Below, in pieces: positions 1-32,943 of a stretch of DNA of 32,943 bases (positions within the stretch are counted from its first letter, which is position 1; every line of letters starts with the position of its first letter). The notes under the pieces are model-generated. The model ran no database searches. It was given only the letters and a program-made list of their open reading frames with translations, and was not told the DNA's origin. This DNA comes from an uncultured virus (IMG/VR IMGVR_UViG_3300002220_000147) (lineage: Duplodnaviria > Heunggongvirae > Uroviricota > Caudoviricetes > Crassvirales): IMG/VR virus record IMGVR_UViG_3300002220_000147, one strand, 5' to 3'. Position numbers and translations under genes: made by a program.

Positions 1-32
1 TTAATAAATTAATTGAAATAATAGAAACCCCT

Positions 33-293: not shown

Positions 294-313
294 TAACTAA
301 AAAGAAGAAGACC

Positions 314-595: not shown

Positions 596-598
596 AAA

Positions 599-931: not shown

Positions 932-947
932 AATTTAAATTAAAGAC

Positions 948-1430: not shown

Positions 1431-1951
1431 AAAAAATAATTATATTTATAGGTTTATTGACTATGTTATCTTCTTGTGTAACACAAAAAGCCTGTAATAA
1501 AAAGTACCCACCTGAAGTAATAACAGAAATAGCTGAAAAGATTATTATCAGAGATTCAATAGTAGAAAAAATAATAAATGTTCCTGTATATATAAAGGGA
1601 GATACTATTAATAATTATGATACTGTTGTATTAAACAAATATACTGGATTAATTAATTCTAAACCTGTATACGCAGAAACTGAGTTTTCTAAAGCTGAAG
1701 CACAGGTTATTAATAGTAGACTTAGTTTAGAACTTATCCAAAAGGATACATTGTTTTCAGTACAGGCAATAGCGAAAGAAGCTTATTATTGGAGAGAAAA
1801 ATATAGAGAAGAACTAACTAAAACAGTTAAAGAGGTAAGATATATACCTAATTTTTATCATGTAATGGGGATAATAGGAGTTATCAGTTCTGTTTTATTC
1901 TTGGTATGGCTCATATTTAAACTATTTAAGAAACCAAAATTATTCTTATGA
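1427..1951 (+). CDS. lipoprotein with C-terminal TM helix, putative unimolecular spanin
   Basis: Signal peptide with lipobox LSS-C17; C-terminal hydrophobic helix (VMGIIGVISSVLFLVWLIF) and Lys-rich tail; ATGA overlap with the amidase gene. Confidence 0.65.
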   Translation: MKKIIIFIGLLTMLSSCVTQKACNKKYPPEVITEIAEKIIIRDSIVEKIINVPVYIKGDTINNYDTVVLNKYTGLINSKPVYAETEFSKAEAQVINSRLSLELIQKDTLFSVQAIAKEAYYWREKYREELTKTVKEVRYIPNFYHVMGIIGVISSVLFLVWLIFKLFKKPKLFL

Positions 1952-2679
1952 CACTATCTGAACTATACAATGAATTGTGGTTAGATGTAAACTCATCTCA
2001 ATCAGATGATTCAGTTCTTGATGAAAGGCTCTTAAAACATTTTATACATAAAGTACGTGCAGTATTTGTAAGAAATGAATTAAATAAATCTCATAGGACA
2101 GTTGATGCTTCATTAATACAAGATTTAGGTCTTGTAGAATTGGAAGCTGTAAGTGATTTTACCCCTTCTGATATAACTAATATTGAGCATAAGATATTAA
2201 GGACTGTACAAGACATTCCTAAACCACTTGAACTACATACTAAACAAGCGTTCACTTATATAGGCTCATTAAGTCAAACCAGCAAAGGGTTTAAAATAGT
2301 GGATATTGCTAATATGCCTTATGTAGGAAATGGTAAATTCAATAAGAACTTTATGTATGCTTTTATAATGAACAATAAAATTCATATAATAGGTAACTGC
2401 AACAATACTGCATTTAAAGGACTTAAGTATATTAATATAAAAGGAGTGTTTGAAAATCCTGAAGATGCTTCAAAATTTAATAAGCCTGATGGAACTCCTT
2501 GTTATTCAGATAATGAAGAATACCCACTTCCTTTGTATATGTGGAATTATATTAAAAATGAAATTATTAAGTCTGATCTTAGACAATTTTACGTACCAAT
2601 TGAAGATGTACTGAATAATGCTAATAATGATATAAATAGAATGAACATACCTGTTTCTAATGAAAAAGATAAAGACTGA
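1948..2679 (+). CDS. crAss-like structural protein, probable tail ring/adaptor protein
   Basis: Ends with a 'GVFENPE...C....EYPLP' pattern that I recognise from Crassvirales ring proteins; positioned before the IHF-like, tail-tube and muzzle genes. Confidence 0.65.
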   Translation: MTLSELYNELWLDVNSSQSDDSVLDERLLKHFIHKVRAVFVRNELNKSHRTVDASLIQDLGLVELEAVSDFTPSDITNIEHKILRTVQDIPKPLELHTKQAFTYIGSLSQTSKGFKIVDIANMPYVGNGKFNKNFMYAFIMNNKIHIIGNCNNTAFKGLKYINIKGVFENPEDASKFNKPDGTPCYSDNEEYPLPLYMWNYIKNEIIKSDLRQFYVPIEDVLNNANNDINRMNIPVSNEKDKD

Positions 2680-3184
2680 TTATAATTCTTATACTATATA
2701 TAAAAAGTATTGTGAGGATACAGGAAATCCTAGAAAGTTATCAAAGAAACAGTATTCAGGAATTCTTAAAGAGTTTTTTAAAAAGATTATAGATTCTATG
2801 ATAATGCAAGCTGTAGAATTTACTTTTCCTCATAGACTTGGTAATTTAAGAATTAAAAAAACTAAGATTAAAATAAAACTTGATAATAAAGGAAATCTTG
2901 ATAAATCAAGGCTTGCTCCTGATTGGGGAGCTTGTAGAAAATTATGGGCTAAAGAATATCCTGGAAAAAGCCTTAAGGAAATTAAAGAAATTAAAGACAA
3001 GCCAATGATATATCATACTAACAGGCATACTGATGGATATAGGCATAAATGGCATTGGGATAAAACTACATGTCTTGTAAAAAACAACTCAGCGTATAGT
3101 CTTGAAATGTGCAGAGCTGTTGATAGAAAATTAGCCAAGGCTTTAAAAGACGAAAATTTATCTCTTGATTATTCACTATTTTAA
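2660..3184 (+). CDS. IHF/HU-like DNA-binding protein (crAss-like)
   Basis: Very basic; a helix followed by FTFPHRLGNLRIKK resembles the HU/IHF beta-arm entry; an IHF-like gene at this position is typical of crAss-like tail modules. Confidence 0.7.
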   Translation: MKKIKTDYNSYTIYKKYCEDTGNPRKLSKKQYSGILKEFFKKIIDSMIMQAVEFTFPHRLGNLRIKKTKIKIKLDNKGNLDKSRLAPDWGACRKLWAKEYPGKSLKEIKEIKDKPMIYHTNRHTDGYRHKWHWDKTTCLVKNNSAYSLEMCRAVDRKLAKALKDENLSLDYSLF

Positions 3185-3194
3185 AATAAAAAAT

Positions 3195-3494
3195 ATGAGT
3201 TACTTAGAAAAAAGCTCTGATAATCCATCTAAAAAAAGATACAAAAGATGGTCTAAAGAATTAAGTGCTAATGGAATAACTGAAAGAGTTGAGGTTGAAG
3301 AAGTATCCAACGGATTTATTATTTCTATAGTCAAGTATGGTAAGGAAGAAAATTCTGAAAAATATATTGATATATGTACAAAAAAGATAAGTACAACTAA
3401 CCCATTTGAAAATAAGCCTAAAGAAGATTCAGATAATGAATCATTTGATGGTTTAATGAAAAGTGCTATTAATAGTATGGATAATTATTTATAA
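3195..3494 (+). CDS. hypothetical protein
   Basis: ATG at 3195 after A-rich AAATAAAAAAT is preferred over the ORF-track start at 3165, which overlaps the upstream gene. Confidence 0.65.
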   Translation: MSYLEKSSDNPSKKRYKRWSKELSANGITERVEVEEVSNGFIISIVKYGKEENSEKYIDICTKKISTTNPFENKPKEDSDNESFDGLMKSAINSMDNYL

Positions 3495-3530
3495 TAATTC
3501 TATAGAGTAATAATTAAAATAATAATAAAA

Positions 3531-4289
3531 ATGTTAAACCCAGGATACACTAGTATAGAAAGAGTAGTTGAAAATGTTATTAGAGATACAGGTTTCACTG
3601 ATGAGATTAGTTGGCCTGATATTGTTGAATGGGTATTTATTGCTCAAGAATTAATTAATGTTCCAAATGCCTATGTTAAAAAAGTAACAGATGGTAATGA
3701 AGATTACGGGCACTACTCCCCTATAGAAATAATAAACTATAGGGGGGAACTACCGTGTGATTTTCATAAACTTGTTGATATAAGAGAACATTGTAGTAAA
3801 ATGCAGGTTAATCATAATACAGATACATTTGCTATTAGTAATAATAATCCATCATTTTCTTTAAATACAAGCATAACTTATACAATTAACAACAATTATA
3901 TATTTACCAATATAGAATCTGGATTTTTAGAAATAGTTTATTGGGCATTTCCAACTGATGATAATGGGCTTCCAATGATTCCTGATGATGTATATTATAT
4001 TAGAGCAATAGAAACTTATCTTACAGAAAGAATAGGTAGAAAATTATGGATACAGGGAAAATTAGCAAGAGATGTATATCAACTATTTGAACAGGATTGG
4101 TTATGGTACGCAGGTAAAGTAAGAGCTAAAGAAGCTATGCCTTCTCTTGCTCAACTTGAAAGTTTAAAGAATCAAATATTAAGACTTAACCAATCAACGA
4201 TACAGCGTAAAGCTAACTATACAGCTCTTGGAAATCCTGAAGAAATGTATGTACAAGGCAGAAGAAGAATAAACAGACCGTTAATTTAA
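3531..4289 (+). CDS. tail tubular / ring protein (P22 gp4-like, crAss Ttub/R1)
   Basis: Motifs GELPCDF and Y.AFPTDDNGLPMIPD; immediately upstream of the muzzle gene, as in Crassvirales. Confidence 0.75.
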   Translation: MLNPGYTSIERVVENVIRDTGFTDEISWPDIVEWVFIAQELINVPNAYVKKVTDGNEDYGHYSPIEIINYRGELPCDFHKLVDIREHCSKMQVNHNTDTFAISNNNPSFSLNTSITYTINNNYIFTNIESGFLEIVYWAFPTDDNGLPMIPDDVYYIRAIETYLTERIGRKLWIQGKLARDVYQLFEQDWLWYAGKVRAKEAMPSLAQLESLKNQILRLNQSTIQRKANYTALGNPEEMYVQGRRRINRPLI

Positions 4290-21600: not shown

Positions 21601-24600
21601 ATGAGAAACTTATCAGAGAAGATGCTGCTAATTCAGGATTATCTGAAGGACAGATAAGTATTCTTGTAGACCAGTATATGCAACCATACTATAATATGGA
21701 TATTGCAGACGGTTTAGGTATGATGTCATTTGATAGATACAGGCATTTCCTTATGGCTACAGGTGATTGGAATATGGATACTCAAGAGCCTGTATATCAG
21801 AAGATTATTAATGGTGAGCCATTAACAATTAAAGATGTTGCTGTATTTCCACCAATTAAACCACAGGGATTTGGCCCTAAAGCCTTTAAAATTCTGTTTG
21901 GTGAAAATGGCCCTGTAGAACAGGATATGTCAGATGAAAACTTTAAGTTAGCGTTTGAGAAATTATCTATTATACCACTAATCCCTACTACAACTCAAGG
22001 AAAACAGATAGGTGTACTAAGTGAATCAATGCAAATGTCAGGTGTTGATATAGCAATATATCAAACAGGCTTAAAAGACAATACTTCTAATGAAGAAGAC
22101 ATTGTTGATTTTAAAGGAGAGCCTATGTATATGAACAGTTTCAATCAGAATCTTAAATACTGGAAGATTCAATTGGATATTCATCCTGAGATTGAAGAGT
22201 CTGATACGGATGGTACTCAACAAAGAGTTGGTATATTTACTGACTTGTTTAGTGGTGGACAACCTGTTGATTTTGAAGGTGAGGAGAATTGGAATGAATT
22301 ATCTTTATCTGAAAAGGAAGAGTCCTCCCCATTATATAAACTTTATAATGAGTATTCAAATATCTATGAGGGCATTATAACTGATTCCAAAGAGAAGTTT
22401 CTAAAGGAGTCGGGAATAGTTTTATCTGAAGATGGTGAGTATATTATAAAAGACTATGAGAAATTCTCTAAAGTAATCAGGAAAGAGATTAGTAGTAGGA
22501 GATTACCTTCCAATATACTTAAAGCAGTTGTTGTTGATAAAGAAACAGGTAAGCTTAAATTTCCTATTGATGCACTACCTATAGCAGATAAGATTGAGAA
22601 TATGTTATTTGCTAAGGCAATGAACAATACTGTCAGAATTAAAAGAGCGGGTGCTTCTTATATCCAAACTTCTAATGCTTTATGGACAGATGCTAATACT
22701 GCAGAAGCTACTAAATTTGCCAAAAAACTTAACTTTATAAGGGAAGAGAATGGTAAGATTGTAGGGGCAGAAGTATATCTACCTAATTATATGAGAGATA
22801 TAATAGGTGATATTAATGATGCAGACTTAGATAAATTAATGAAAGAAAAGCCTGAATTATTCAGGTTAATGGGTTATAGGATTCCTACTCAGGGGCAGAA
22901 CTCTATGCTACCTTTGGTAGTTAAGGGCTTCTTACCTGCTGAAATGGGGGATACTGTAATTGTACCTTATGAGATTGTTGCTCAGTCAGGTGCTGACTTT
23001 GACATTGATAAATTACATATATTCAGACCTAACTTTATAAATCTTGATGGTAAGGTTACTTATGTAAATGATAGTATTACTGAAGATGATATTAAGAAGG
23101 ATATAGAGGTAATTAATAAACTTCTACCTACTTTGACAGCTATGCCGGGAGAGAAAATTTCTTCTGTAATAGAAGCTAATGCTGTATTGTCAATGATGGG
23201 TATTACTACTGAAGAGTTAATTAATGAGAAGGAAGAAATTGGTAGCCTTCTTAGGGGTAGATTATCCTTGATGAAGAAACAAAACAGACTTCTTGAAATT
23301 CAATTAGAACTTCTGTCACATCCTGCTGCTACAAGGAACTTGATTGTACCTAACGGTGCTGAATTTCTTAAAGAAGAAGCTGCATTTACTGAGTATCTTA
23401 AGGAATTAGGGAGAGCTGGTGCTATAGTTGATATTAGTAAAGTAACCAAAGAATCCTCTGACTTTAAGAATTGGTTACCTGTTTATACTAAGGAACAAAA
23501 TACTACTAAGCAGAGGAATCTTCTTAGTTACAGATTTGAACTTGAGACTGGTATGGCTTTTAAAGGAGGTAAAAAAGGGGTAGCAATTGCAGCCACTTAT
23601 GCTAAATTCCATAATCTTAGCCAGCAATCAGGGTTAACTCTGTCAGGAGTAATCAAGACCAAGACAACTCATATTGATGGTAAGAATGGCCCCGCAACAG
23701 CATATTCTGATAAGGGTACTCCCGTAGTACTTAAGTTTGAACATAACACTGTAGATAAGGAAGGTATTACTTTAGTTGCTCTTGGTAAGAAATTTGCCAA
23801 AGGTGGTAGACTTATATCTGAGCAATTTAATGAGCATTTAACTGCTAATGTGGATATTGCTAAAGACCCCTTTATCTTTAAACTCAACACCAATGGTATT
23901 ACTTCAAATGTAAAATACTTTATGATAGCAGTTGGAGCTAATCCTGAATTTGCTAATAGATTCTTAACTCAACCTATTATAGAGGAGTATATTGAAGAAA
24001 GGTTAAAGAATGAGTCAGTATCAGTAAATGCTACAAGAACTAATAAGGAGGAATCAGTATATGAGGGAGAGGATGCTATTCTAGAGAAATTGTACAGAAA
24101 GTATGGTGGTAAATCTTCTGATAATGTAGGTAAGGTGCTTGAGGATATTCATGGAAGGTCTGAAGGTAACATTACTATTCAGCAACTTAATGAAGGTATT
24201 CTTAAAGGTGCTTCAACTACCCAAGAAGACTCAGATAAAACATTTCAACTCAAAGTACTTGCTGACTTTAAAGCCTATTTAGAGTATGGTAAAGCATTCT
24301 CTGATGGGGTACAATCAGTTAAATCTGATACCAAGAGGCTCAAGAACCATTCTGAAACTGTTACATTATTAGATAACATTGAAGAGGTAGAAAAGGTTGG
24401 GTTATTCTCCGATATAAAAAAGGCTCTTAGTAGGGGCATCTTAAAAGGATTTACTAATGCTCACGCATCTTTTGTAAAGAACCTTTACAAACAGGTATTT
24501 TTAACTCAATCGAATGGTATTCAGGAGAAGATTTATAAAGCAATCAAAACTGATATTTCTATTGGTAGAGCCCAACTATCTGAGAAAGAGGTAGATAAGA

Positions 24601-25664
24601 TTAGACAATCTATTATGACCTACTTATTACAGGTAGCCGTTAGTAAAGCATTATATGGCACAAAAGGAGTTCCATTTACTTATGATATAGTAAAAGAGAA
24701 TCTTGTAGGTGAACAGAGTGTTCCTAGAATTACTCATAATTTCTCTAAAAGAAAGAATACTATTATAACTATATTTAGAGATTTCTTATATACAAGAGCT
24801 GGGGATACTGCTGAAAATGTAGATACTATTAAAGTGAATGGTAAGAAATTAGACCCTTCTACTGCTGACTTAATTGCTGACCAATTCTCTCAGGTTAATG
24901 AGGGGGATAGTGCAGTGTTTAATCAGTTATTGACTGTAACTGCAATGCAGACTGGTACAATGTATTCTCCAATCAACTTCCTGAAACATATGGATTCAGA
25001 AGCTGTTGGTAAAATACTTGCCCCAATCATTAAACAAGCATTAGAAAATCCTGTAGTGAATACATTTAATCTAAGTTCAGATACTTATGAAAACTTCTTA
25101 GATAATTTCTATAGAGCTAATCGTAAGAATACTAATCTTGTGCCTAGATTAAGAGGTATGAGACACGCTAAACTTAGTAGTGATGGTAATGTCCTCACCA
25201 TAGGTAAAGATAGTATGTATTATGGTAGAAGAATGCTTAGAAGAGTTGAAAAGTCTAAGGATAGTAAGGGTAATGTTAAATTTATTGATATACTTTACAA
25301 GTATGAGGGGTTTGCTGGAGAAGAGGCTATTTATGTTAAGACTAATGTAAAGAGTACATTCTTCCTTCAGGAATATCATAACGGTAGTCAATCAGTGGAT
25401 ATAACCAACATAGATAAGGCTAACTTCATATCAGATACTGATAGAAAGAATTTAGTAGATGCTTTTGTAAAGAAGGGGATGTCAGTTCCTGTATATGATG
25501 AAATTGTTCAACTAAAAGAAGCTGCTGCTGAACCTATAGCTGAGGAAACTTCATCTTATTATGGTAGAACAGAATCAGGCATTTCCGTAGAAAGTTTAAT
25601 ATCTGAAAAGGAATGGAAATCAATGAGTGAAGATGAGCAGAATAATTTTATCAAATGTAACTAA
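12636..25664 (+). CDS. giant virion polyprotein: membrane-active N-terminus, coiled coil, zincin protease domain, virion DNA-dependent RNA polymerase (phi14:2 gp66-like)
   Basis: GYRIPTQG...GADFDIDKL catalytic motif (DFDID at 22995-23009), upstream ADG and PIKP motifs; HEAFH (19005-19019) with downstream EELLAE; N-terminal hydrophobic helices and an EGIYEEGLQ motif. Confidence 0.9.
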   Translation: MSNIDLSQIIQNSTNELDPVTQQPTKGKSRYVPLNINARDYEFNKFPTENVGNYTQGERSSYDENLTPTQLRGLVNAPENSEAFLEDFRSQEQASLPAFGNASAKLLAKTGINVLGGLAGTVYGVGSAIAEGNITKLYDNAIINELDGWSKNLDKAMPVYKSSNYESDNLLENIVKNPIMFADVASDAISFTAGIMLTAYAAGAIAAPFKVANAVNKVSKFNKGARFLEEGVAGVESIDKASKTLLGANKIDDVLGNVRRIITGSAYEASVGANNTAQNMRAKAIPILDKELSDKYNLLAQEAIARHPNAAENPAIQSMIDAELKYIKSAYDSERSKRLLELEYNVQRAGMGDYVTNLAILGTSNAFQFSSTFGMRWSGARKTLSSGAAKFSKEVAEETGEKLLKATATNVPTTKVGKILSTAKTIVEKPFVEGIYEEGLQGASSTAMSDYYLRKYDSKNFGEARTYLESAYRALMQTYDPSNTQSWKEIGMGMIIGGLGAPGKGLMPGHLGINSDTQKREPLWTGGIKGSFDERKSRRDNVGRILSKYKDIGENTTIGMKAGYNNVVADMEAVRNQEESIKNNDKKAFLDNQDDRFFGFVKARESAGVGSTIDDEIDSMKEMTPKGFIETYSGDQSDLLSMTAKQQEEYKNSTIEALEKRLSAIRESMSLVNSIEPSDPINNYIPEIEDIKEQFAYLHSKGAFIDLRQDQLKNLLDTMTTGVIDGRTALQLEKDMALLGVDRNVVENLVSKRDKISKLEESLAVKEDELSSIRNTTNDRLKVQKQQKDKLDDELTSLRNELQQEKTKLTKFISKKGRSNREAVGGLTTPQARAEVKAAEKLDHDVVVEYGKKIEKLEKDIANREKAASTFNKSITKIQKKLDELDIEGKTTIEKIKSELDSYKKSYREELDKRHTISKEAANRRNVDFTFDNYNAYATEIIKVMEADEVFQKNAQKYYSTNPLEQDKIKEALIDMGRLENSRQEAIELLNFLKTKSGRDIAVTKLKRAMYKNYEKDFAINEEVKEEITELLKDPRYLTTGIPYSYLLNGKEVIGKIINHIESGTPLFVPNDKKDTVYEDKDKDGKVIESYTLISLQQILTLAKATNPEITENKVLDDAIFATKQEDAKLKKVGSINTDSGTFTLPGDVMEDSEGNEYFVVTKYTKEGAPYFVYYDINENGSIGPRTIPEQDQPDYKTLKLVSSEDKVFDGDLVDYEDSKGNKEIGILAYESPFLFEGEANDQSTYPKKLTFKPVAGTTSIVIEDRDTIKTLVDQAIEAKSSKETVVDSKTKNPIINYKGQDGSIEYRIKQAKKISKWRKSKTGKRYNKPYTLYFLPGENKFTTIELSPVAGKTLAEVEELARNGNLTSEDLTGLTGSREKVSNYDITDIEVLQDDFVSKSGERYVIFKKGDAIFAAKKIAKFYKIFTESNQVSNYGRNGEVNFAKITYYVDNSSEKELGETYDDTIKLSAQNPHLMFVAGREVEFTEVKLPSGNIFYENKRNPDGSLVVHANKSQQNWYNFLKTKFEGDPEKLKEFMDNHVLKVVVNNSEATAKYFEEDDAPKTGINSDGTISLPMSKEVYLKVVIVDKNTLEPITDENGNELFNSIHSPNFTNFDSTSPEAKAFYIEELNKLRALIIAKINENAEHSPTLLLPIVDVTTGRAVYEESVVTERGKERTRFNVKGRLVSENADSVSIPWDVITSQKDATDEAIGATVIINGKEYRFSKKSRSVGQIISAIVGANGKAIPVTLLTRNVNSEEATTIAALLKMVANGTNEFDGIPIIPESSQSVKDAQFYLKKFVKYGKNSGKNVDTQLYWDAKTKSIVIGKDSISLEEVNSEEGFNKLVSKLKERKILHVSKSFKGKPFNVSYTDKDGKVVKSLSFGHYNNYLFGDKDSKGNSTLRPVLQTDLAKQVDGVNPVVQVGMEYGDLHTSITDAPIFTKKTYAGAETKRTPSKKVDNTKDGVAGLDAGAPADLAAKFLEIQDELERFIEGTHTGTPVGTLSDVLKDTTEALAPTKTESVDTTMPASGNLSDFLGTKDEVVTGNEVSDEEATRLVALSNTTDIQFENIPQVREWFRKNLPNIPLEVVDKIIATAKGGAWGTFTGKAVRLYNLAEIGTAFHEAFHAVYRIGLTRSQQRMLINTIRKEKGKDISISDIEELLAEDFRNWMLTGKSEYSTPSPVKRTIFQAIQDFIDSIIDLFTGVKGFRNTIELYQNINSGAYSHIRAKTEELSKDNWKLRQITGLDVTETEDLITGLSVRVMSNLYSKYNSDFTEFLKNIGGLIVQELQDYKNSEWIPEGKKKRIEGVLTNNLAEVITSIKDHFNYIGLSIDMELGDDANSLIESVNDGEAIANRGQEYNDSIEVSNIRNMANEIKLLIHTLYERVPVREGVSAEKLNSVGLPTIVNFASTYNTLLETLNGTTNWDGANGIMTKLKKLATEKPEITLLINRLNKLTGDRGVVVKNKFRQAFSINRYGYKTYVIGEEGGKFINSSTSRNIDRLREQLDSEYKNSSLYKEALHEDAAKVNRKILSEITELKKMDKNSPAFKTRFSNLMRGLGFDNILDLNSLINNPILSDEVLITLSEENTFASTNLVSDLTVLKSGRFKKVLMNEALNRKNYFEPQHANPKNKIVHEYSLNNYYSSIVNVLNNAMNLPTAEDRIADVYNRLPQMRNLEGKSIWWTTVLNGLTDGSLDLSITFLEGMRENISGAEGKVTYDLSQTDLAKMHIEGMLIAGLHTFRRPSDKSLEPAIEGFGLEIKPDNTRLKQILIGYIKHDLKTTNNKGLQMLESIFSPQLVADIIANQGKLELISDKILTEFKKYLSDEATSIEKLLTELKLIHSKGNLFSEELTKVYKNTSDIIDAFVLNYFISRIEQHMMFLGDFTQFTQLFKRTSGPTGTGKTFSQDAHTVEMIQKGYIAQLSKMPLESRYNRLDLILQLTVPQREALGITDEMVLNLPVTINSTNISILKERTEKITERQREWYEKLIREDAANSGLSEGQISILVDQYMQPYYNMDIADGLGMMSFDRYRHFLMATGDWNMDTQEPVYQKIINGEPLTIKDVAVFPPIKPQGFGPKAFKILFGENGPVEQDMSDENFKLAFEKLSIIPLIPTTTQGKQIGVLSESMQMSGVDIAIYQTGLKDNTSNEEDIVDFKGEPMYMNSFNQNLKYWKIQLDIHPEIEESDTDGTQQRVGIFTDLFSGGQPVDFEGEENWNELSLSEKEESSPLYKLYNEYSNIYEGIITDSKEKFLKESGIVLSEDGEYIIKDYEKFSKVIRKEISSRRLPSNILKAVVVDKETGKLKFPIDALPIADKIENMLFAKAMNNTVRIKRAGASYIQTSNALWTDANTAEATKFAKKLNFIREENGKIVGAEVYLPNYMRDIIGDINDADLDKLMKEKPELFRLMGYRIPTQGQNSMLPLVVKGFLPAEMGDTVIVPYEIVAQSGADFDIDKLHIFRPNFINLDGKVTYVNDSITEDDIKKDIEVINKLLPTLTAMPGEKISSVIEANAVLSMMGITTEELINEKEEIGSLLRGRLSLMKKQNRLLEIQLELLSHPAATRNLIVPNGAEFLKEEAAFTEYLKELGRAGAIVDISKVTKESSDFKNWLPVYTKEQNTTKQRNLLSYRFELETGMAFKGGKKGVAIAATYAKFHNLSQQSGLTLSGVIKTKTTHIDGKNGPATAYSDKGTPVVLKFEHNTVDKEGITLVALGKKFAKGGRLISEQFNEHLTANVDIAKDPFIFKLNTNGITSNVKYFMIAVGANPEFANRFLTQPIIEEYIEERLKNESVSVNATRTNKEESVYEGEDAILEKLYRKYGGKSSDNVGKVLEDIHGRSEGNITIQQLNEGILKGASTTQEDSDKTFQLKVLADFKAYLEYGKAFSDGVQSVKSDTKRLKNHSETVTLLDNIEEVEKVGLFSDIKKALSRGILKGFTNAHASFVKNLYKQVFLTQSNGIQEKIYKAIKTDISIGRAQLSEKEVDKIRQSIMTYLLQVAVSKALYGTKGVPFTYDIVKENLVGEQSVPRITHNFSKRKNTIITIFRDFLYTRAGDTAENVDTIKVNGKKLDPSTADLIADQFSQVNEGDSAVFNQLLTVTAMQTGTMYSPINFLKHMDSEAVGKILAPIIKQALENPVVNTFNLSSDTYENFLDNFYRANRKNTNLVPRLRGMRHAKLSSDGNVLTIGKDSMYYGRRMLRRVEKSKDSKGNVKFIDILYKYEGFAGEEAIYVKTNVKSTFFLQEYHNGSQSVDITNIDKANFISDTDRKNLVDAFVKKGMSVPVYDEIVQLKEAAAEPIAEETSSYYGRTESGISVESLISEKEWKSMSEDEQNNFIKCN

Positions 25665-25669
25665 GTATT

Positions 25670-28600
25670 ATGGCAAATTGTGTAAATAAATCATTACCGG
25701 AATTTAAAAATTTAGCTGCTGAATCTGGTATTAATCCTTTAGTATTAGCAGTTAAAATAGGAGTATGGCAAGAAAGTAATGGGCTAGATAACTGGCCCAC
25801 TCTTGCTGATTTAGGTGTTGGTAATAAAGAAGAAATAACTCAAGACTCTAATAGTTTTTATAGAGGACAAATAGAACAACCTACTATAGATAAAAATGGT
25901 AACCTTATCTTACATGGTAAAAAAGATTCTTTATATACTAAAGCAGGATTAAAAGATACTGGTGTATCAATGACAGATGATTTACAATCCGCTATAGAGT
26001 ACGGTAATGGGCAATTAGAAGTAACTAAAAATTTAGCATCTGAAACTTATGATGCAGAGCAAGAATTAGAAACTCTTAGTCAAAATGGGTATTGGTTAAT
26101 TCAAATACCTAAGAACATTTCTAATGAAGTAGTTAAAGAGGCTGGAGAAGTTAAAGTTATAGGTGATAAAATTATAGTACCTAAAGGTAAATACAAAGTA
26201 GAACAAGTATCTGATTTTTTACAAAAGGGTAATTCTACAACAGAAGCACCAATTAAAGAATTAGAATCTAAACTAATGTCTTTTCTTAATAAGATTGGTG
26301 TTAAAGTAGAAACTTTAGGAGAAGGTGATTTTGTTGCTAAGGCTAAGTTACTTGAGAAGATAATTCAAGTGGTACAAGGTAAGGCTGATATTACCACCTT
26401 ACCTGAAGAGGCTAGTCACATTTTTGTAGCAATTCTTAAGGCTAATGGTGTAGTATATCAGAAACTTGTTGCTGATATTGAATCTAACCCAATCTATAAT
26501 GATGTATTTGAAGAGTATAAGAATATTTATGTACTACCTAATGGTAATCCTGATATAGATAGAATTAAAGAAGAAGCTGTGGGTAAACTTATAGCCAAAA
26601 ATATCGTGTCCTTATACAAATCAGGATTGGTAGCCAATGAAGGTAAACCTAAATCTTGGTTAGAGAAAGGCTGGGATATGATTAAAGCTGTAATTAAAAG
26701 GGGACTTAACTCTATTGGTATAACTAATTTTTCTCCTATGATAGCTTCTGTTGAAGGTAAAACTGTTGATATTTATCAGCAGACAGCTTCACGTATTCTT
26801 AAGGGAGATTTAAAGGGGTTGAACTTATCTTTACCTTTGGATAACTATGAGATGTTACAGAAAACTAACGCTAGTCAATCTGATGTAGTTAATTCAATTA
26901 GAGCAATTCAAAATAGGATTGAAGTTGGTTCTGAAAAATTAGATAGTGGAGAAAATAGACACTTCTATTTTATTGATAAGGCTACTGATAGGGAGCGTAA
27001 AGTTTATGGAACTCCTTCAATGATAGCTAGTCAAGATAGTAGGAAAAGAAGTAAATATTCTCGTAAGTTTATCTCCCAAGATACTCTTACTGCGTGGGAT
27101 AAAGCTGCTAAGAGAGGTACTACTGTTCATGGGTGGGTGCAGGATATTGTTGAAAACTATGTTAGTTCTAATAAGGTTATATCTACAGCTACTTATAAGA
27201 AATTATCCCCAAAAGAAAGAGTGCTTTATGATGGAGTAAGGGCTAAAGTAGAAGCTCTTATTGATTCCATTAAAAGAGAAGACCCTACTGCTATATTTAT
27301 GCCAGAGATGGCTATCTATGACCCAACATACAAATGGACAGATGATTATGGCAAGTCTCAAACAGGTATTGCCGGGTCTATAGACCTGCTTGTTGTTCAC
27401 GGTGATGGTACTGTAAGTATTTATGACTGGAAAACTACTTCTAAGGGTAAAGGATTGGATGCTATAAGTATATGGAAAGCCTTTGAATATAATACTCAGG
27501 TATCTCTGTATAAGAGAATGCTTATGGATGGTAATTCTTATATGGGTGTTCCTAAAGTAAAGGGTATTAGAAAAAGTAGACTAGTACAAATTAGTACAGA
27601 ATCTGATGCTGAGGGTAAACTTAGTAAAGTAGAACTTATAGGTGAAATTCCTGTTGCAGGTGAATCTACTGGTAATACTAAACTTGATTCTAAATTAGAG
27701 GGTTTATATAATAAGTTTTATAAATTACTTAAAGCAAAACCACCTAAAGATGCTGCTGAAAGGAAGGCTTATTATGCTAGGATAGATTCAATAAAAGATA
27801 CTATTATAAACCTACACCTTAGAAAGGGGTACGCCACTATCATTGATAATGCCACTATTGACCTTGAGTATGTAAATAAAATTCTTAACAAAGAGGATGT
27901 TTCCATAGAAGACTTAACTACCGCTAAAGAAGTAACTAATTTGTATGGAGATATTATGGAATTTATAGATGACTCTGGGCTTACTAAGGAGAATGAGGCT
28001 GCATTAGCTTTTATTCAAAGAAAATCTATTAAAGCAGCCAAAACCATTAATGAAAAGATAATGCTTATACAGCAGGCTGAAGCAAGTAACTATGGAATAT
28101 CTGTTCCATTAGATGCTATAAGCAGGCAAGTAGGATTTTTAGAAAAGAATTTTAGGTCTATTAGTACTGTTAATCACCCAATGATTGCTTATCTATATGA
28201 AAAAGTTAAAAGGGCTTTATATGTATCTGAACAAGAGAATAATACTTTACGTGCAGAAATTATACAGCAACGTGAGGAGGTAAAAAAATGGGCAAGCTCT
28301 CATGGATTATCTTTGCAGGAAGCTATTGATAAAATCATTAATAAAAAGACAGGTAATTTAATTGGAGTAGTTAAGGCTGATTATTTTACTAAACAAAGAG
28401 AGGCTAGAGCAGCTAAGAATTTGGCTTGGTTTAAAGAGAATGTTACCTTAGATGTAGATTTATATAATAAAGAATTAAAAGCCTTTGCTGATGGATTAAA
28501 TTCAGGTAAACCTCTTAGTAGAAATCCTGCTAAGAATAAAGAAATGCAGGAACAACTAGTTGCTGAATTTAAAGCTCTTGAAAGTAACCTTATGGAGTCC

Positions 28601-30646
28601 CATTACACCAAGATTCGTACAGATAAGGAGAGTGAATGGTTCTCAGATGAGTGGAAAGAATTAAATAAGTCTGATAATAAAGCACTTAAAGATTTTTATG
28701 ATTTCTTTATTAAGACTACTAGCCGAATGGCTAAGACTCTTCCACATTTTAATCACAAATATACCTTCATTCCTTCTGTTAGGAAAACTTTGATGGAGCA
28801 ATTAGGTAATGTAGCTGATGGTAAGGGGTTGTTTGAAAATGTAAGGTCTAGAATGTCAGTGAATGAATTAAATGCTAATTCAGGTGCAGTCAATGAAATG
28901 ACTGGTGAAACAGGTGGAGAAGTTCCTTTATACTTTGTAGAAGGGATTAAACCAGAGGATAAGTCTTACGATTTATTTAGAGTGCTACAAATATTTGGAG
29001 AAATGGCAAATAATTATAAGAATATGTCGGAGATAGAAAATTCTACTCTTGCAGCATTTGAAATTCTTAAAGGACAAGAAGCCTATTCATCATCAGCATT
29101 TAATCCTCTTGGAATTAAGATAAGTCCTATGACTCAAAATCCACAGAAAAGTACTCAGGCTAATGAGGGTTGGGTGGAAATGTATGAAGACTTTATGAAT
29201 TATTTTGTATACGGAGTTAGTACTAAAAATCCTTCCAAAATAACTGAAATGTTGGATTCTTTGAATAAGTTTACATCATTTAACTTATTAGGGCTAGCCC
29301 CATTTCCAGCTATGGCAGCATTAGTTGCTAATGCAAGTAATACTCAAATTCAGATAGCAAGAAATATCTATTTTAATGAGAGACAGTTTGCTAAGTCTTT
29401 ATGGATGTTAACTGGTGGTAAAGCTATTGGTGGTAATGAGAAGGAAATAGCTTTTGGATTACTACAATTATTAACACCTACTATTGACATTAGAGCTGAA
29501 GCTAAGAATAGAAAACTATCTACTAAGATACAAGTTAGAAAGGTAACAGTAGACCATTTTTATTTTATGCTTAGGGAAACTGACCAATTTAATCAAAGTG
29601 CTGTAGCATTATCAATGTTGCAAAACGCTACTGTTACTAAAGATGGTAGAATTAGGTTACTATCTGACTATGCTAAGGATTTAAGACCTCCACATTATTA
29701 TGATAAAGATACTAATAGGAAGAAGATTGATGAGGAAATTGCAGAAAAGATGAAATCAGTTAAGTCTATAATGGATTTAACTTCTGTAGATGATAAAGGC
29801 ACACTTAGGATTGAGGGTATTCCTGAGTTGAGTATGGAAACTATTATGGAATTTAGACAAATGATAAGACAAGTTAATAAAAATATTATTGGTAATATGG
29901 ATGCTAATGATATATTTACTGCTAAAGTAAATGCTTGGGTTAGACCTCTCCTATTGTTTAGAAACTGGATGCCTAGAATGATTGAGGAAAGGTTTGGAGA
30001 ACTCAGATATAACAGAGAGTTGCAAAGAGCTGAGTTTGGTAGGTACAAAACTTTCTTTAAACACCTTACTACAGTAGCTAAGGATGAAAACAATAGACTT
30101 AAGTGGAGTATGGCTATTGGAATAGTTGAAGCAGCTAAAATAGAATATCTTAAACAAGTTGCATTAAACCCTAATATAGTAAATGATATTTCAGAAATGG
30201 AGTTTATTGATCTGTATAAAGAAAATATGAGAGCTTCTTATGTTGGACTTGCAATTACAGCGGCAGTACTTATGTTTATATTTGCTTCTATAAGAGCATT
30301 TGATGATGATGACGATGAGAATTTAACTTCATCACAAAAACTTCAACTTAAGCTTTTAAGAAGAGCTTATTCTGAAATGTCAATGTTTGCTAATCCTGTA
30401 GAAGCTATCAATATTCTTAAATCTCCTACAGCATCTCTAGCACCACTAGTTACACTAGGTAGGGCACTTAATCATTCGGCTAAACAGTTTACAGGTTGGG
30501 TATTAAATGATGAAGAAATGCAGTTTAAAGCAAGACCTGTTAAGTTTTGGATGAATTTTAGTCCATTAGCGGGCCCTGAAAAATTCTACAGGTTATTAGA
30601 TGACCAGTGGAAAGAGAGAATTGAAGATAATAAGAAAAGTGAGTAG
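25670..30646 (+). CDS. large virion polyvalent protein: ART-like, degenerate zincin-like and PD-(D/E)XK nuclease domains, helical C-terminal region with hydrophobic segments
   Basis: FYRG / GVSMT / EAGEV; LPEEASH...EEAVG; RGTTVH...GSIDLL...IYDWKT...QVSLY; C-terminal hydrophobic helix YVGLAITAAVLMFIFASI. Confidence 0.75.
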   Translation: MANCVNKSLPEFKNLAAESGINPLVLAVKIGVWQESNGLDNWPTLADLGVGNKEEITQDSNSFYRGQIEQPTIDKNGNLILHGKKDSLYTKAGLKDTGVSMTDDLQSAIEYGNGQLEVTKNLASETYDAEQELETLSQNGYWLIQIPKNISNEVVKEAGEVKVIGDKIIVPKGKYKVEQVSDFLQKGNSTTEAPIKELESKLMSFLNKIGVKVETLGEGDFVAKAKLLEKIIQVVQGKADITTLPEEASHIFVAILKANGVVYQKLVADIESNPIYNDVFEEYKNIYVLPNGNPDIDRIKEEAVGKLIAKNIVSLYKSGLVANEGKPKSWLEKGWDMIKAVIKRGLNSIGITNFSPMIASVEGKTVDIYQQTASRILKGDLKGLNLSLPLDNYEMLQKTNASQSDVVNSIRAIQNRIEVGSEKLDSGENRHFYFIDKATDRERKVYGTPSMIASQDSRKRSKYSRKFISQDTLTAWDKAAKRGTTVHGWVQDIVENYVSSNKVISTATYKKLSPKERVLYDGVRAKVEALIDSIKREDPTAIFMPEMAIYDPTYKWTDDYGKSQTGIAGSIDLLVVHGDGTVSIYDWKTTSKGKGLDAISIWKAFEYNTQVSLYKRMLMDGNSYMGVPKVKGIRKSRLVQISTESDAEGKLSKVELIGEIPVAGESTGNTKLDSKLEGLYNKFYKLLKAKPPKDAAERKAYYARIDSIKDTIINLHLRKGYATIIDNATIDLEYVNKILNKEDVSIEDLTTAKEVTNLYGDIMEFIDDSGLTKENEAALAFIQRKSIKAAKTINEKIMLIQQAEASNYGISVPLDAISRQVGFLEKNFRSISTVNHPMIAYLYEKVKRALYVSEQENNTLRAEIIQQREEVKKWASSHGLSLQEAIDKIINKKTGNLIGVVKADYFTKQREARAAKNLAWFKENVTLDVDLYNKELKAFADGLNSGKPLSRNPAKNKEMQEQLVAEFKALESNLMESHYTKIRTDKESEWFSDEWKELNKSDNKALKDFYDFFIKTTSRMAKTLPHFNHKYTFIPSVRKTLMEQLGNVADGKGLFENVRSRMSVNELNANSGAVNEMTGETGGEVPLYFVEGIKPEDKSYDLFRVLQIFGEMANNYKNMSEIENSTLAAFEILKGQEAYSSSAFNPLGIKISPMTQNPQKSTQANEGWVEMYEDFMNYFVYGVSTKNPSKITEMLDSLNKFTSFNLLGLAPFPAMAALVANASNTQIQIARNIYFNERQFAKSLWMLTGGKAIGGNEKEIAFGLLQLLTPTIDIRAEAKNRKLSTKIQVRKVTVDHFYFMLRETDQFNQSAVALSMLQNATVTKDGRIRLLSDYAKDLRPPHYYDKDTNRKKIDEEIAEKMKSVKSIMDLTSVDDKGTLRIEGIPELSMETIMEFRQMIRQVNKNIIGNMDANDIFTAKVNAWVRPLLLFRNWMPRMIEERFGELRYNRELQRAEFGRYKTFFKHLTTVAKDENNRLKWSMAIGIVEAAKIEYLKQVALNPNIVNDISEMEFIDLYKENMRASYVGLAITAAVLMFIFASIRAFDDDDDENLTSSQKLQLKLLRRAYSEMSMFANPVEAINILKSPTASLAPLVTLGRALNHSAKQFTGWVLNDEEMQFKARPVKFWMNFSPLAGPEKFYRLLDDQWKERIEDNKKSE

Positions 30647-30655
30647 GTAAAATTA

Positions 30656-30689
30656 AAACCCCCTGAAATTAATCAGGGGGTTTATTTTT
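30656..30689. terminator. bidirectional intrinsic terminator
   Basis: Stem AAACCCCCTGA (30656-30666) / TCAGGGGGTTT (30673-30683) with loop AATTAA; T-rich on the right and A-rich on the left; between convergent gene blocks. Confidence 0.9.
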
Positions 30690-30873
30690 ACTTACTGTCT
30701 CTAGGAAACATTAGTTTTTCAACAATATTATCCTGTATACCTTCCAACCATTTAATAGATTGTTTATTCTGATAAGACATTACTAATGCCCATATTGCTA
30801 CACCAAGAGTAATAATTCTTAGTAGCATTTTTAAGGTACTATAATGTTCACTTTTAACTTTAGATTGTTTCAT
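30688..30873 (-). CDS. small single-TM membrane protein
   Basis: 61 aa with hydrophobic LLRIITLGVAIWALVMSY; last gene of the minus-strand block. Confidence 0.65.
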   Translation of the reverse strand: MKQSKVKSEHYSTLKMLLRIITLGVAIWALVMSYQNKQSIKWLEGIQDNIVEKLMFPRDSK

Positions 30874-30938
30874 ATTATTTAGTTAATTCTAAATCCTCTT
30901 GTAATCTAATAAGAAAGTTATCTTCTCCATCATCTCAC

Positions 30939-31214
30939 TCATTCTTCACTCCTTTCTACATAAGGGGAAGTATCTAAATAAATAAAAGCCCATTCTCTTT
31001 CAATTAATTTCTTATTAAGCTTAGTTACCTTATGAATGTAATCTTTAGCCCAAGCAACCCACTCATCATTTTGAGCTTGAGTTACAGGGAATAGTCTGTA
31101 CCAATTTGGTGATTTAATTTCTTCAGGGTATTTTTCTGCAACTTCTTTACAATTAGTATTATGGTATTTTGATAACCACCAATCCATTAAGTCTGTTCTA
31201 CTAACCTGTTTCAT
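30939..31214 (-). CDS. hypothetical phage protein (Trp-rich)
   Basis: 91 aa; ATGA overlap with the upstream gene. Confidence 0.7.
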   Translation of the reverse strand: MKQVSRTDLMDWWLSKYHNTNCKEVAEKYPEEIKSPNWYRLFPVTQAQNDEWVAWAKDYIHKVTKLNKKLIEREWAFIYLDTSPYVERSEE

Positions 31215-31612
31215 TTTAAAATATCCTCCTTAGTATATAAACAAGGTCTAAGAACCGCCAAGTGGTCTTTTATTCCTGCTTTATCCATTAAATAACTAAA
31301 TGTATGATTTATAATTAGTTTACCATCAACAATATTAAATCCGTAGATAAATCCTAACTTATCGTAGTCTGGCATTTTTATATACATTCCTGTATTAAAA
31401 AATACTCCGTCTACTATTCTGGTTACTGCTGTCACTACATCTCCTTTATAATGAGGAATATATGGAGTAACTTCTATAATCTCTTCCCAATCGTAAGATT
31501 TCTCTACAAAAAGAGATGGTATAGAATGGTATTCATTTGTATAAAATTTACAACCTAAGTCGTGCCTCTCTTGTACAATGTCTCCTGTAATCCTATGTTT
31601 ATATTTTTTCAT
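31211..31612 (-). CDS. hypothetical phage protein
   Basis: The MKKYKH start at 31612 is preferred over 31645 because it gives only a short overlap with the upstream 56-aa ORF. Confidence 0.65.
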   Translation of the reverse strand: MKKYKHRITGDIVQERHDLGCKFYTNEYHSIPSLFVEKSYDWEEIIEVTPYIPHYKGDVVTAVTRIVDGVFFNTGMYIKMPDYDKLGFIYGFNIVDGKLIINHTFSYLMDKAGIKDHLAVLRPCLYTKEDILK

Positions 31613-31769
31613 AGTTTTTAATTTTTTCGTTAAATTGCTTCTCATTCAAATGAGTTGTGTATGGGAATTCTTCTCCGGCTAAATTTTTAATTCTTAAATA
31701 AGTTATAGCAAAATAATAAGGAGATTCTTTACACTTCTCAATCTCGTTAAGTATATCCTTTTCTTCCAT
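31599..31769 (-). CDS. 56-aa protein (absent from ORF track) resembling the N-terminal helix motif of T4-type large terminases
   Basis: Manual translation MEEKDILNEIEKCKESPYYFAITYLRIKNLAGEEFPYTTHLNEKQFNEKIKNYEKI*; fills the gap between its neighbours, starting 2 nt after the upstream stop. Confidence 0.65.
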   Translation of the reverse strand: MEEKDILNEIEKCKESPYYFAITYLRIKNLAGEEFPYTTHLNEKQFNEKIKNYEKI

Positions 31770-31771
31770 AA

Positions 31772-31996
31772 TTAATCAGGTTTATAAGGTGTTGGTAATT
31801 TCATATACGCTACAATGTTACCTTCAACATTAGCATAATCATCTGATTTATCGTAAAGACATAGTTTTACAGTATCATCATTAAGTGTGACTAACCATAA
31901 TCCACTTTCAATAGGTTTACCTACTCTCCAACATAAAGCCCTCTCCCCATTATCATGTTGAGGAGAGAACTTAGTACTAAATGATATATTATTCAT
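31772..31996 (-). CDS. DUF551-like small phage protein
   Basis: Pattern W....P...G.WLVT...IVAYMKLPTPY resembles DUF551. Confidence 0.6.
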   Translation of the reverse strand: MNNISFSTKFSPQHDNGERALCWRVGKPIESGLWLVTLNDDTVKLCLYDKSDDYANVEGNIVAYMKLPTPYKPD

Positions 31997-32591
31997 TTTA
32001 TTAAATTTTTAATAACCATTACTTTTAATTGCTGATAAGATACAGGTGTGTAATTCCAAGCATCCACGCCTATATCATATCTCATAAAATGATATGGAGC
32101 TATTTCACTGGCTGTATAGTTTGGGCCACTATGAATATGTCCATGTAAATGAATATATCCCCTTCTCCAATATAAAAATGGATAATGGGTTATAATAAAA
32201 TTCATATGCTTACTCTCCAATTCATCATCAATAATTGTGAATTGATACATATCAGAAGTTTGATGAAACATATCTTTGATTATCTGTCTATCAAGTCTAT
32301 TCCGGTAATCATGATTTCCAAGAATTAAATATATTTTACCATTTAACCTTTCAACTAATTCTCTAATATAGTCTATCCTTGCAGTCATAACAAAGTCTCC
32401 AGCATGGAATACAATTCCATCCTTAGGAACTACACTGTTCCAGTTGTCAATCAAAGCCTCATTCATATGAAACTCATCTTGGAAAGGTCTGTTACAAAAC
32501 TCTATAATATTTTTATGGTAAAAATGAGTCAAGTATCCGAGGTAAAGAATATCTTCTCTGCCTCGGACATATTAAAATTAGGTATTTTCAT
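31993..32591 (-). CDS. calcineurin-like metallophosphoesterase interrupted by a 5-nt gap (candidate programmed bypass, otherwise pseudogene)
   Basis: The first frame (ATG 32591) encodes MKIPNFNMSEAEKIFFTSDT then TGA. The second frame resumes at HFYHKNII and contains HAGDF, LGNHD, THYP and HGHIH. Skipping 5 nt restores TSDTHF and gives 197 aa. Confidence 0.85.
32534..32569 (-). other. mRNA stem-loop directly 5' of the interruption
   Basis: UGUCCGAGGCAGAGAA-GAUA-UUCUUUACCUCGGAUA: 15 of 16 positions pair (two G-U, one C-A mismatch). Confidence 0.75.
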
Positions 32592-32643
32592 TTGTGTTAT
32601 TTTTTAAGTATTATGAATGCTGGTTCGTTATGGTTAGCCACGA

Positions 32644-32839
32644 GTTAGGCACAATAAAACTATCGTGCTTTCCAAAGGTCTTCCATTACATCAGAACCTT
32701 TATCACCGTAATCGCTTCTCCAAGTTATTAATGCTAATAAAAAGTAAAGCACTCCTATTATCATTGCTATTGGTGTGCATAAACACTTGATTAAAGTTGT
32801 CATTAATGGTATCATAATTTAAAATTTACTGTGCCTAAC
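32644..32839. repeat. 15-bp inverted repeat pair bounding the 51-aa ORF
   Basis: GTTAGGCACAATAAA (32644-32658) versus TTTACTGTGCCTAAC (32825-32839): 14 of 15 complementary; the ends fit GTTRRRY and RYYYAAC. Confidence 0.8.
32660..32815 (-). CDS. 51-aa membrane peptide carried in a cassette-like unit (absent from ORF track)
   Basis: Manual translation MIPLMTTLIKCLCTPIAMIIGVLYFLLALITWRSDYGDKGSDVMEDLWKAR*; fills the space between the flanking inverted repeats. Confidence 0.65.
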   Translation of the reverse strand: MIPLMTTLIKCLCTPIAMIIGVLYFLLALITWRSDYGDKGSDVMEDLWKAR

Positions 32840-32925
32840 AAGCAATATAAAACAGTTGCCGTCAAGCTATTACTAAATTTGAAACGTCTTACAAGGCAAC
32901 CGTTTCATATTGCCGACCGTTACCA
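32833..32925 (+). mobile_element. attC-like integron cassette recombination site
   Basis: Starts GCCTAAC and ends GTTACCA, 93 bp; internal arms GCAATATAAAACAGTTGCC (32842-32860) / GGCAACCGTTTCATATTGC (32895-32913) match at 17 of 19. No integrase in the window. Confidence 0.65.
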
Positions 32926-32943
32926 ACCATTTAAGGAAGGTAA

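Follow-up and report, generated by a model that had tools for sequence, protein, structure and literature searches.

A phage hairpin family as the probable recombination site of an integron-like gene-cassette system

The closest described relatives of the locus considered here are the integrons, whose attC sites carry spaced single extrahelical bases. Xer recombinases act on folded single-stranded DNA, or on Xer sites, at the attP site of CTX phage and in Xer-site-flanked modules of plasmids, and in T4-type phages the shuffling of promoter/stem-loop (PeSL) cassettes is reportedly due to recombination between the repeated motifs themselves. Sites of the attC type are also on record in phages: the study by Qi et al. 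2023 (PMC9892861), which used IntegronFinder and HattCI, gives attC clusters, and three integrons, in 21 of 10,705 GenBank phages, with two to four canonical attC-type sites each, recombined by the bacterial IntI1. Here we describe a hairpin at the end of a 32,943-nucleotide stretch of DNA, called the window throughout, from an uncultured crAss-like virus (IMG/VR record IMGVR_UViG_3300002220_000147). An initial annotation, made from the letters alone, had taken this hairpin for an attC-like site and suggested an integron-like system that shuffles phage accessory genes. Comparison with related loci supports such a system, though not a canonical attC/IntI integron, the extra domain of IntI being missing and the orientation of the genes inverted. 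We propose, at a probability of roughly 0.78, that mobile gene cassettes recombine at this hairpin as parts of an integron-like system borne by phages. Such a system is apparently common to many uncultured environmental phages.

The hairpin is an inverted repeat within the last 110 bases of the window. Its 19-nucleotide (nt) arms (32842-32860 and 32895-32913 on the plus strand) enclose a 34-nt loop and are flanked by GCCTAAC (32833-32839) and GTTACCA (32919-32925), the anatomy that the initial annotation had given; the longest exact seed of the repeat is 7 nt, and a repeat listing based on exact seeds misses it. Agreement with the attC core consensus is partial, GCCTAAC fitting RYYYAAC and GTTACCA not fitting GTTRRRY. 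The choice of the plus strand of the window as the top strand of the site, with GTTACCA on the crossover side, stands, and so does the argument from its two arm mismatches, which are A-C on the plus strand and G-T on the minus strand. Folded as DNA, the minus strand reaches -15.5 kcal/mol (z -4.34) and the plus strand -11.3 kcal/mol (z -2.71), and none of 200 shuffles was as low as either energy. The better-folding strand is thus minus, the gene-sense strand, which holds all genes neighbouring the hairpin. In the model structure a 5-bp core pairing is followed by a 3-nt bulge and then by the long stem, and the presence of this conserved bulge means that extrahelical bases do exist in the window hairpin, where none had been clearly recognised. 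The bulge and the conserved G-T positions, which may mark the recombined strand, lie on the better-folding strand, in a number and place unlike those of attC extrahelical bases.

Related sites are abundant elsewhere, and they are arrayed. The exact 19-nt arm occurs in 32 IMG/VR viral contigs, as part of an element of about 97 nt whose conservation is near 90%, between flanks that have nothing in common from contig to contig. From 29 copies of the element we derived a covariance model, which gives 103 matches in the window and 32 loci (33 sources); the copies stand between small genes in same-strand arrays, all on the gene strand and numbering up to 8 in 5 kb. The window itself holds the single site that had been seen, the model finding no second copy in it with filters off (next best match 15 bits, E 0.12). 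The family has the plan TAAC...stem...GTTA, with core lengths of 48-127 nt, and was seen only in viral contigs; among GenBank phages it had no DNA match in near or distant search mode. In the window and across the family, AAC (5') and GTT (3') triplets close the imperfect inverted repeat, and the weaker matches keep these ends only (on the gene strand 5' [ACG]TAACG and 3' TTGTTA), their stems differing in sequence and staying complementary. Of the cells in an alignment of 45 matches, 96.2% pair; shuffles give 71.7% and slid partners 34-51%. These figures are to be read with the fact that the alignment was fitted to the model, which favours structure. Changes on both sides were found in 20 of the 25 stem pairs, and the first four core-helix pairs are kept in 42-45 of the 45 sequences.

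The strand preference seen in the window is also general. Of 79 distinct elements, 75 fold more stably on the gene-sense strand. G-T pairs account for 257 of the 2351 pairs on that strand and for 46 of the 1961 on the antisense strand; the 29 near-identical copies are not independent, and divergent elements show the same strand bias. At four fixed positions (columns 6/162, 14/158, 22/149 and 27/144 of alignment A4) a G-U (G-T) pair is found in 26-35 of the 45 sequences, with neighbouring pairs changing freely. These fixed-position G-T pairs are conserved wobbles, not merely tolerated ones.

A second regularity ties each hairpin to the gene that follows it. We define the tail as the 9 nt that follow GTTA in an element, and the foot as the 9 nt that lead up to the TAAC of the next one; a tail is complementary, in reverse, to the foot that lies beyond the following gene, and not to the foot of its own element. 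Of these positions the five closest to the core vary by cassette and the outer four are conserved (tail CAGT[AT], foot [TA]ATTG), with one T-G wobble on the sense strand among them. All five variable bases pair in 20 of 22 neighbours less than 700 nt apart, as against 1 of 63 elements when own foot is set against own tail and 5.0% across loci (the chance level), and none of 10000 permutations reaches 20 paired neighbours. The commonest pair, TAGCC/GGCTA, recurs in several loci, so that the 22 neighbour pairs, with about 19 different pentamers, are not all independent. At one locus (L006) the fourth core base covaries as well, GTTG going with CAAC. We also used a finder blind to the hairpins, which seeks complements of the form GTT[AG]+9 ... 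9+[TC]AAC; since this pattern is its own reverse complement, shuffles serve as the control. It gives 18 pairs against 1.6 in shuffles at L042, 11 against 2.8 at L041 and 12 against 2.65 at L043, and one true tail/foot case in the window. There, tail and foot pair at nine of nine positions (Table 1), so that the window contains one complete cassette. The proposal that the distal core starts a different cassette is borne out, as the sequence after GTTA belongs to the next cassette, and the complement that the cassette itself has to the bases beside GCCTAAC lies at 32644-32656. When a site is reconstructed with the foot of its own cassette, as it would stand in a circularised one, stability rises in 158 of 163 cases (the mean going from -16.3 to -23.9 kcal/mol); the window site goes from -15.9 to -27.0 kcal/mol. 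Across the family the start codon lies 10-40 nt past the tail, and the upstream stop lies within the foot, 7-9 nt before TAAC.

What moves can be read from like cassettes in unlike surroundings. Fourteen pairs of like cassettes from separate contigs were obtained; six of them either have synteny on both sides or repeat a cassette under an alternative start, which leaves eight distinct pairs with unrelated far flanks. In all eight, likeness is higher over the 90 nt upstream (0.46-0.97), where the preceding hairpin lies, than over the 90 nt downstream (0.35-0.62, near background), and these values together with the alignments identify the upstream hairpin as the one travelling with the gene. The likeness starts exactly at the upstream TAAC in three of four aligned pairs (L002/L072, L002/L069 and L050/L063), the fourth (L113/L116) having no more than patchy likeness in its upstream hairpin, and it ends exactly after the downstream TAAC in two of two (L012/L042, 98.1% over 267 nt; L013/L019, 95.5%). 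Hairpins of unrelated sequence still adjoin cassette ends that are sharp at TAAC. The window fits this pattern: another study's contig matches 32644-32935 with 9 differences and is unlike exactly before 32644, and three sequencing runs give three different continuations behind 32922 (runs were compared as contigs only, and parts left uncovered carry no meaning). Cassette-level variation, for which the initial annotation had said one should look, is therefore present in the eight non-syntenic contig pairs and in that contig. Judged by these comparisons, the mobile unit on the gene strand is the segment running from just behind one TAAC through hairpin, GTTA, tail, gene and foot to the end of the next TAAC. 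A crossover in the loop was our first reading of the linkage data; we rejected it in view of likeness that runs to the upstream TAAC, a result that does not account for the patches within near-identical hairpins.

A tyrosine recombinase lies at the end of related arrays. It has 267-279 aa (with PF00589 and PF13495) and is encoded in 4 of the 33 element-bearing records, where in all five gene copies (four full, one an N-terminal fragment) the last foot-TAAC stands 36-52 nt before the recombinase ATG on the same strand and is followed by the motif TAAC-[TA]AnnATATAT. An independent sample was drawn via the recombinase protein alone, giving 96 relatives in viral contigs, many of them 100-460 kb long, of which 80 were kept. 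Once duplicates are removed, 62 loci have 48% identity or more and 120 nt or more of upstream sequence; 55 of them carry the attI-like motif in its strict pattern, and the seven misses are four near variants and three truncated matches. Cassette pairs at the recombinase loci number 310 in 270.8 kb upstream (1.14/kb) against 39 in 325.8 kb downstream (0.12/kb). Of closed TAAC...GTTA hairpins there are 217 upstream, 192 with the sense strand folding better, and 78 downstream. The tyrosine recombinase search that the initial annotation had recommended thus led to related loci and not to the window, in which, as it had noted, no integrase is visible: none was found among the scanned open reading frames (ORFs) of at least 175 aa, and tblastn with the associated recombinase gave a best E of 0.68. 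As the window has no recombinase, its array resembles a cluster of attC sites lacking integrase (CALIN). The further suggestion that a host recombinase might be used finds nothing in its favour, for the recombinase that fits is phage-encoded, on other, mostly very large viral contigs.

The protein falls below the cut-off of every NCBIfam model, its best match, to the XerA / 'integron integrase' model, scoring 184 bits where 220 are required, and that to TIGR02249 151 bits where 265 are. Its best solved relatives are XerA (4a8e, 1.4e-37), IntI4 (2a3v, 7.7e-26, in two stretches) and XerD. In a search of 185,579 species genomes no relative exceeds 48% identity; the top ones come mostly from Bacteroidota metagenome-assembled genomes (MAGs), and one of 14 inspected loci of this collection has the attI-like motif and cassettes.

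We suggest the following scheme. On the gene-sense strand a cassette would consist, behind a TAAC, of the bulge, a long imperfect hairpin, GTTA, the 9-nt tail, a short leader, a small gene with its stop, the 9-nt foot and a further TAAC, and cassettes would be joined head to tail at the TAAC core. In an excised circular cassette its own foot would come to lie beside its own hairpin and pair with the tail, so that the stem would be completed and be about 14 bp longer. The small Xer/IntI-like tyrosine recombinase most likely binds the folded gene-sense strand and carries out strand exchange at TAAC, and cassettes would enter at the conserved TAAC-TAnnATATAT site just upstream of the recombinase start codon. 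The array of the window could be filled or reshuffled in trans, for example during co-infection. That the recombinase acts on the hairpin sites, that a single strand is its substrate and that cleavage falls exactly where we place it are steps that the comparisons suggest, as is the action in trans.

The likeness to integrons is extensive. Both have imperfect hairpins with AAC/GTT cores, conserved in structure and varying in sequence and length; both form head-to-tail arrays with one small, mostly unknown gene per cassette; in both the distal core region comes from the neighbouring cassette and matches the cassette's own other end; in both one strand folds better; and in both a tyrosine recombinase of the Xer/IntI group is found at the insertion end of the array (in 5 of 5 copies and 55 of 62 loci here, none of them in the window), its gene lying on intI's side and strand relative to the top strand of the site. 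The differences are as definite. The phage recombinase, at 268 aa, belongs to another subfamily and is without the inserted domain of IntI; the phage cassette genes are antisense to the site's top strand, so that the hairpin precedes the gene and lies in the mRNA as the better-folding strand; and the recombinase gene points the same way as the cassettes. In the phage family conservation is limited to [TC]AAC and GTT[AG] and does not extend to RYYYAAC/GTTRRRY, the flanking 5 nt varying from cassette to cassette. The phage hairpins have the 3-nt bulge where attC has spaced single extrahelical bases, and the system is phage-borne rather than on bacterial chromosomes or plasmids.

Set beside the phages of PMC9892861, the present system shares attC-type sites and small arrays in phage genomes, there including virulent phages of marine Bacteroidota (Polaribacter phage P12002L), and DNA methyltransferases among the cassettes. 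It differs in that no phage-specific recombinase family is described in the text consulted, where crAss, Bacteroid and jumbo do not occur, and in that the present hairpin family is without a DNA match in GenBank phages. With the PeSL cassettes (PMC2839356, PMC4122927) it reportedly has in common that conserved intergenic stem-loops flank small accessory genes in hyperplastic regions, for which modular shuffling is supposed; the present cassettes differ in being core-precise between unrelated hairpins, in their specific foot-tail complements and in the dedicated recombinase at the array end. Xer-dependent elements offer a possible parallel, in that a simple Xer-type recombinase, without the extra helix of IntI, acts on a hairpin mimicking a duplex site; in contrast they use the host XerC/D and a dif-like 28-bp site and move as whole elements, with no arrays of single-gene cassettes that have cassette-specific core flanks.

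Several observations weigh against our proposal. All the evidence is comparative, and no recombination product, circle or empty site was observed. None of the seven element-bearing records that are at least 90% complete has such a recombinase, and the array boundary of the window, 32592-32643, is missing the attI-like motif. IntI4 (2a3v) chain residues 182-258 (77) face recombinase residues 181-209 (29), leaving about 48 residues missing, and it follows that the phage enzyme is without IntI's inserted domain; according to one study (PMC7790495), reportedly, single-strand recombination by IntI came with its insertion, the I2 helix. The two best cassette pairs are 95-98% alike except in the bulge and in the 5' portion of the loop, and in L002/L020 the bulge variant follows the upstream neighbour; such differences within near-identical hairpins mean that crossovers or conversion inside hairpins also occur. 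Where similar hairpin bodies at different loci are compared (351 pairs), tail only is shared in 36, foot only in 12, both in 2 and neither in 301, so that the hairpin-tail linkage from body comparison alone is a mere 3:1 tendency. Finally, the sense-strand G-T wobbles and the fixed distance to the next start codon fit a role in RNA equally well.

That last point leads to the alternative which survives best, although we consider it unlikely: the hairpin and the gene-enclosing foot-tail stem would be signals for processing, stabilising, terminating or translational control in a polycistronic transcript, and genes would be shuffled only by homologous recombination between intergenic repeats. Conserved positions of G-U wobbles on the transcribed strand, the placing of start and stop codons relative to tail and foot, the carriage of the element by complete phages without the recombinase, and polymorphisms within near-identical hairpins, which suggest homologous exchange, are all as it would have them, and shuffling of the PeSL cassettes of T4-type phages by homologous recombination has reportedly been proposed. 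However, cassettes end exactly at TAAC even beside hairpins of unrelated sequence, which leaves homologous recombination nothing to act on; the recombinase genes abut the array end in 55 of the 62 independently found loci; cassettes without an ORF, and even 'empty' ones, exist; and no T run follows the hairpin. The idea that the hairpin is a terminator only is likewise not supported: it is absent from the three terminator-like sites in 30500-32943 and its stem is followed by TTGTTAGG. A search of the whole window against Rfam gave no family match at the gathering threshold, only chance-level microRNA and snoRNA matches (E 0.5-7). An RNA role may coexist with the DNA role; alone, it fails to explain the core-precise ends between unrelated hairpins or the adjacency of the recombinase.

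Much less probable is that the recombinase is an ordinary lysogeny integrase, with an attachment site upstream of its gene by chance, and that the hairpin arrays are an unrelated hypervariable region beside it. Its relatives in cultured Polaribacter and Cellulophaga phages, 31-40% identical and annotated as integrases, are taken as signs of a temperate lifestyle, and one record is classed as a provirus. Against this, a cassette foot and TAAC always precede the pre-integrase site, in the same junction as between cassettes, and the density of cassettes upstream is about 10-fold that downstream. No trace of integrated copies was seen in the 185,579 species genomes, as judged from the low identity of the closest homologues and the rarity of the motif among the inspected loci.

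A miniature transposon or repeat that moves as a single strand (like REP/RAYT or IS200/IS605, with an HUH transposase) and whose hairpin inserts itself at intergenic TAAC would suit a strand-biased hairpin with a conserved tetranucleotide at its foot that is multi-copy and near-identical in unrelated phages, and one of five array-bearing records does have a Y1 transposase gene (PF01797), but this gene lies away from the arrays, the mobile unit is hairpin plus gene plus foot and tail, and foot-tail complementarity across genes is unexpected for a lone hairpin repeat, which makes this explanation very improbable too.

The carriers of the element fall into several distinct groups. They comprise crAss-like phages, complete phages of 35-48 kb (G012, G014, G021 and G030) and fragments of much larger phages, and it is among the last that the recombinase holders are found. 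The crAss muzzle family is present in 5 of 21 records tested (G001, G009, G006, G027 and, weakly, G003). In two complete crAss-like genomes the arrays (four cassettes at L025, one at L031) end in a motif of the attI-like type, without a recombinase. Among 64 cassette proteins 55 have no Pfam match at E 0.001; the others match N6/N4 and C5 DNA methyltransferases, a GNAT acetyltransferase, an AstE/AspA-like protein, DUF7768/DUF4406 and an ExoX-like C-terminal motif, with ART-PolyVal, HypA and DUF6814 below threshold. At one locus beside a recombinase gene (L038 in G007, about 640-1330) there are an ORF-less cassette of about 90 nt and, between two adjacent hairpins, an 'empty' 21-nt cassette.

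We see it as an evenly balanced question whether very large phages own an independently evolved integron, with a minimal Xer-like recombinase able to handle folded single-strand hairpins without IntI's extra helix, whose cassettes (methyltransferases, an ADP-ribosyltransferase-like protein and many small proteins of no known function) circulate as a shared accessory or counter-defence pool among unrelated lineages in probably Bacteroidota hosts, array-only crAss-like phages included. In the literature searched, whose coverage excludes subscription journals and very recent work, we found no description of the hairpin family or of a phage recombinase tied to its arrays. The swapping of small accessory genes between phages is mostly credited to illegitimate or homology-driven mosaicism; a dedicated cassette system, if real, would be a mechanism for such swapping with precise, predictable junctions. 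It would also provide a minable catalogue of mobile phage genes, from TAAC to TAAC, likely enriched in counter-defence, and would mean that capture of folded hairpins needs no special domain of IntI, which bears on the origins of integrons. It would further explain why assemblies of such phages, the window included, break at these repeats. In the run that contains 97% of the window's words the contig depths sum to 24-31 in most bins on either side of the hairpin and to 114-143 at the hairpin itself, and the contigs of this probable source run break inside it; the assembly was broken by the repeat.

Other loci with parts of the system deserve mention. The one motif-bearing locus of the genome collection, L132, has three cassettes upstream of a 46%-identical recombinase in a MAG labelled Bacillota; its contig (49 kb, 42% G+C) is possibly a phage contig binned with a bacterium. 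At L045 (about 2405) and L047 (about 3382) the attI-like motif (TAAC-TATTATATAT...) ends arrays with no recombinase gene after it, the next ORF past the motif at L045 having 436 aa. At L040 (G008, about 1500-1713) an 83-aa ORF follows the array end and is 54% identical to recombinase residues 7-76, the N-terminal domain only; the same record has a full-length recombinase copy 38 kb away. Among cultured phages, two isolates of one Polaribacter phage species are set apart by about 4.1 kb of DNA that lies immediately upstream of an integrase with 37.5% identity: Freya_1 (MT732463.1) is without all of positions 1-4097 of Freya_10 (MT732472.1 1-4200, L209). Both have a foot-like ATTGTTGC-TAAC or TTGTTTA-CAAC and then ACCCC..., 46 nt before the integrase start, and Cellulophaga phage Ingeline has the same ATTGTTGC-TAAC-ACCC; no typical hairpin cassettes were seen in the variable region beside the Freya integrase.

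The features of the window cassette and its surroundings are collected in Table 1.

Table 1. Hairpin, cassette and adjoining features of the window (positions count from its first letter; 5' and 3' refer to the gene strand)
Feature	Positions	Strand	Basis or remark
Array boundary, last TAAC to next gene	32592..32643	-	without the attI-like TAnnATATAT motif
Complete cassette, core to core (hairpin, tail, ORF, foot)	32644..32922	-	foot-tail pairing, contig matches
Foot TATTGTGCC with core TAAC, downstream cassette end	32644..32656	-	match to contig of run X3 ends exactly at 32644
Cassette ORF, 51 aa, hydrophobic N-terminal half, no family match	32660..32815	-	start 11 nt past tail
Hairpin element	32827..32923	-	covariance model match, 110.8 bits, E 5e-26
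Tail GGCACAGTA, cassette-specific partner of foot 32648-32656	32827..32835	-	9/9 pair
3' core GTTA (plus strand TAAC, within GCCTAAC)	32836..32839	-	sequence, model structure
3' stem arm	32841..32860	-	sequence, fold, model structure
34-nt loop with motif ACGTTTCAAATTT	32861..32894	-	variant forms of the motif in mid-sized family members
5' stem arm	32895..32914	-	sequence, fold, model structure
3-nt bulge (GTC on gene strand), boundary of core pairing and long stem	32915..32917	-	position conserved family-wide
5' core TAAC (plus strand GTTA), proposed crossover and next-cassette junction	32919..32922	-	between-contig likeness stops, loose ends behind 32922 (runs X2, X3, X4)
Next cassette (upstream in gene direction), foot and last codons, cut by window end	32923..32943	-	runs X3 and X4 match to 32935, then differ

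The gene content of the window is crAss-like, with ring proteins 1 and 2, a muzzle protein, a cargo protein and a 4342-aa ORF. Its nearest record, G001, has no match to 32000-32943 or to 24000-32600, and neither the window cassette nor its 51-aa protein has a match in the 208 loci (1.92 Mb). The idea of a crAss early promoter found no support; according to the phi14:2 preprint no upstream motif is common to early transcripts. As a speculation, the tail could be read as a Bacteroidota -7-like box (TAnnTTT).

The gene adjoining the array, a metallophosphoesterase (32470-32595, minus strand), looks split near its start. One frame ends in ...KIFFTSDT and a stop; the main ORF picks up in a different frame at THFYHKNII..., so that a short insertion at about 32527-32533 of the plus strand divides the D-x-H motif expected for metal binding; the contig of the probable source run agrees with the window at this split. 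In the minus-strand small genes, 158 bases within 31612-31771 are skipped in one contig of that run, which may be a population variant or an assembly artefact. At 30656-30683 a perfect, G+C-rich hairpin of 11 bp, with T runs on both strands, is likely a bidirectional terminator and separates the converging plus-strand structural block, which ends at 30646, from these minus-strand small genes.

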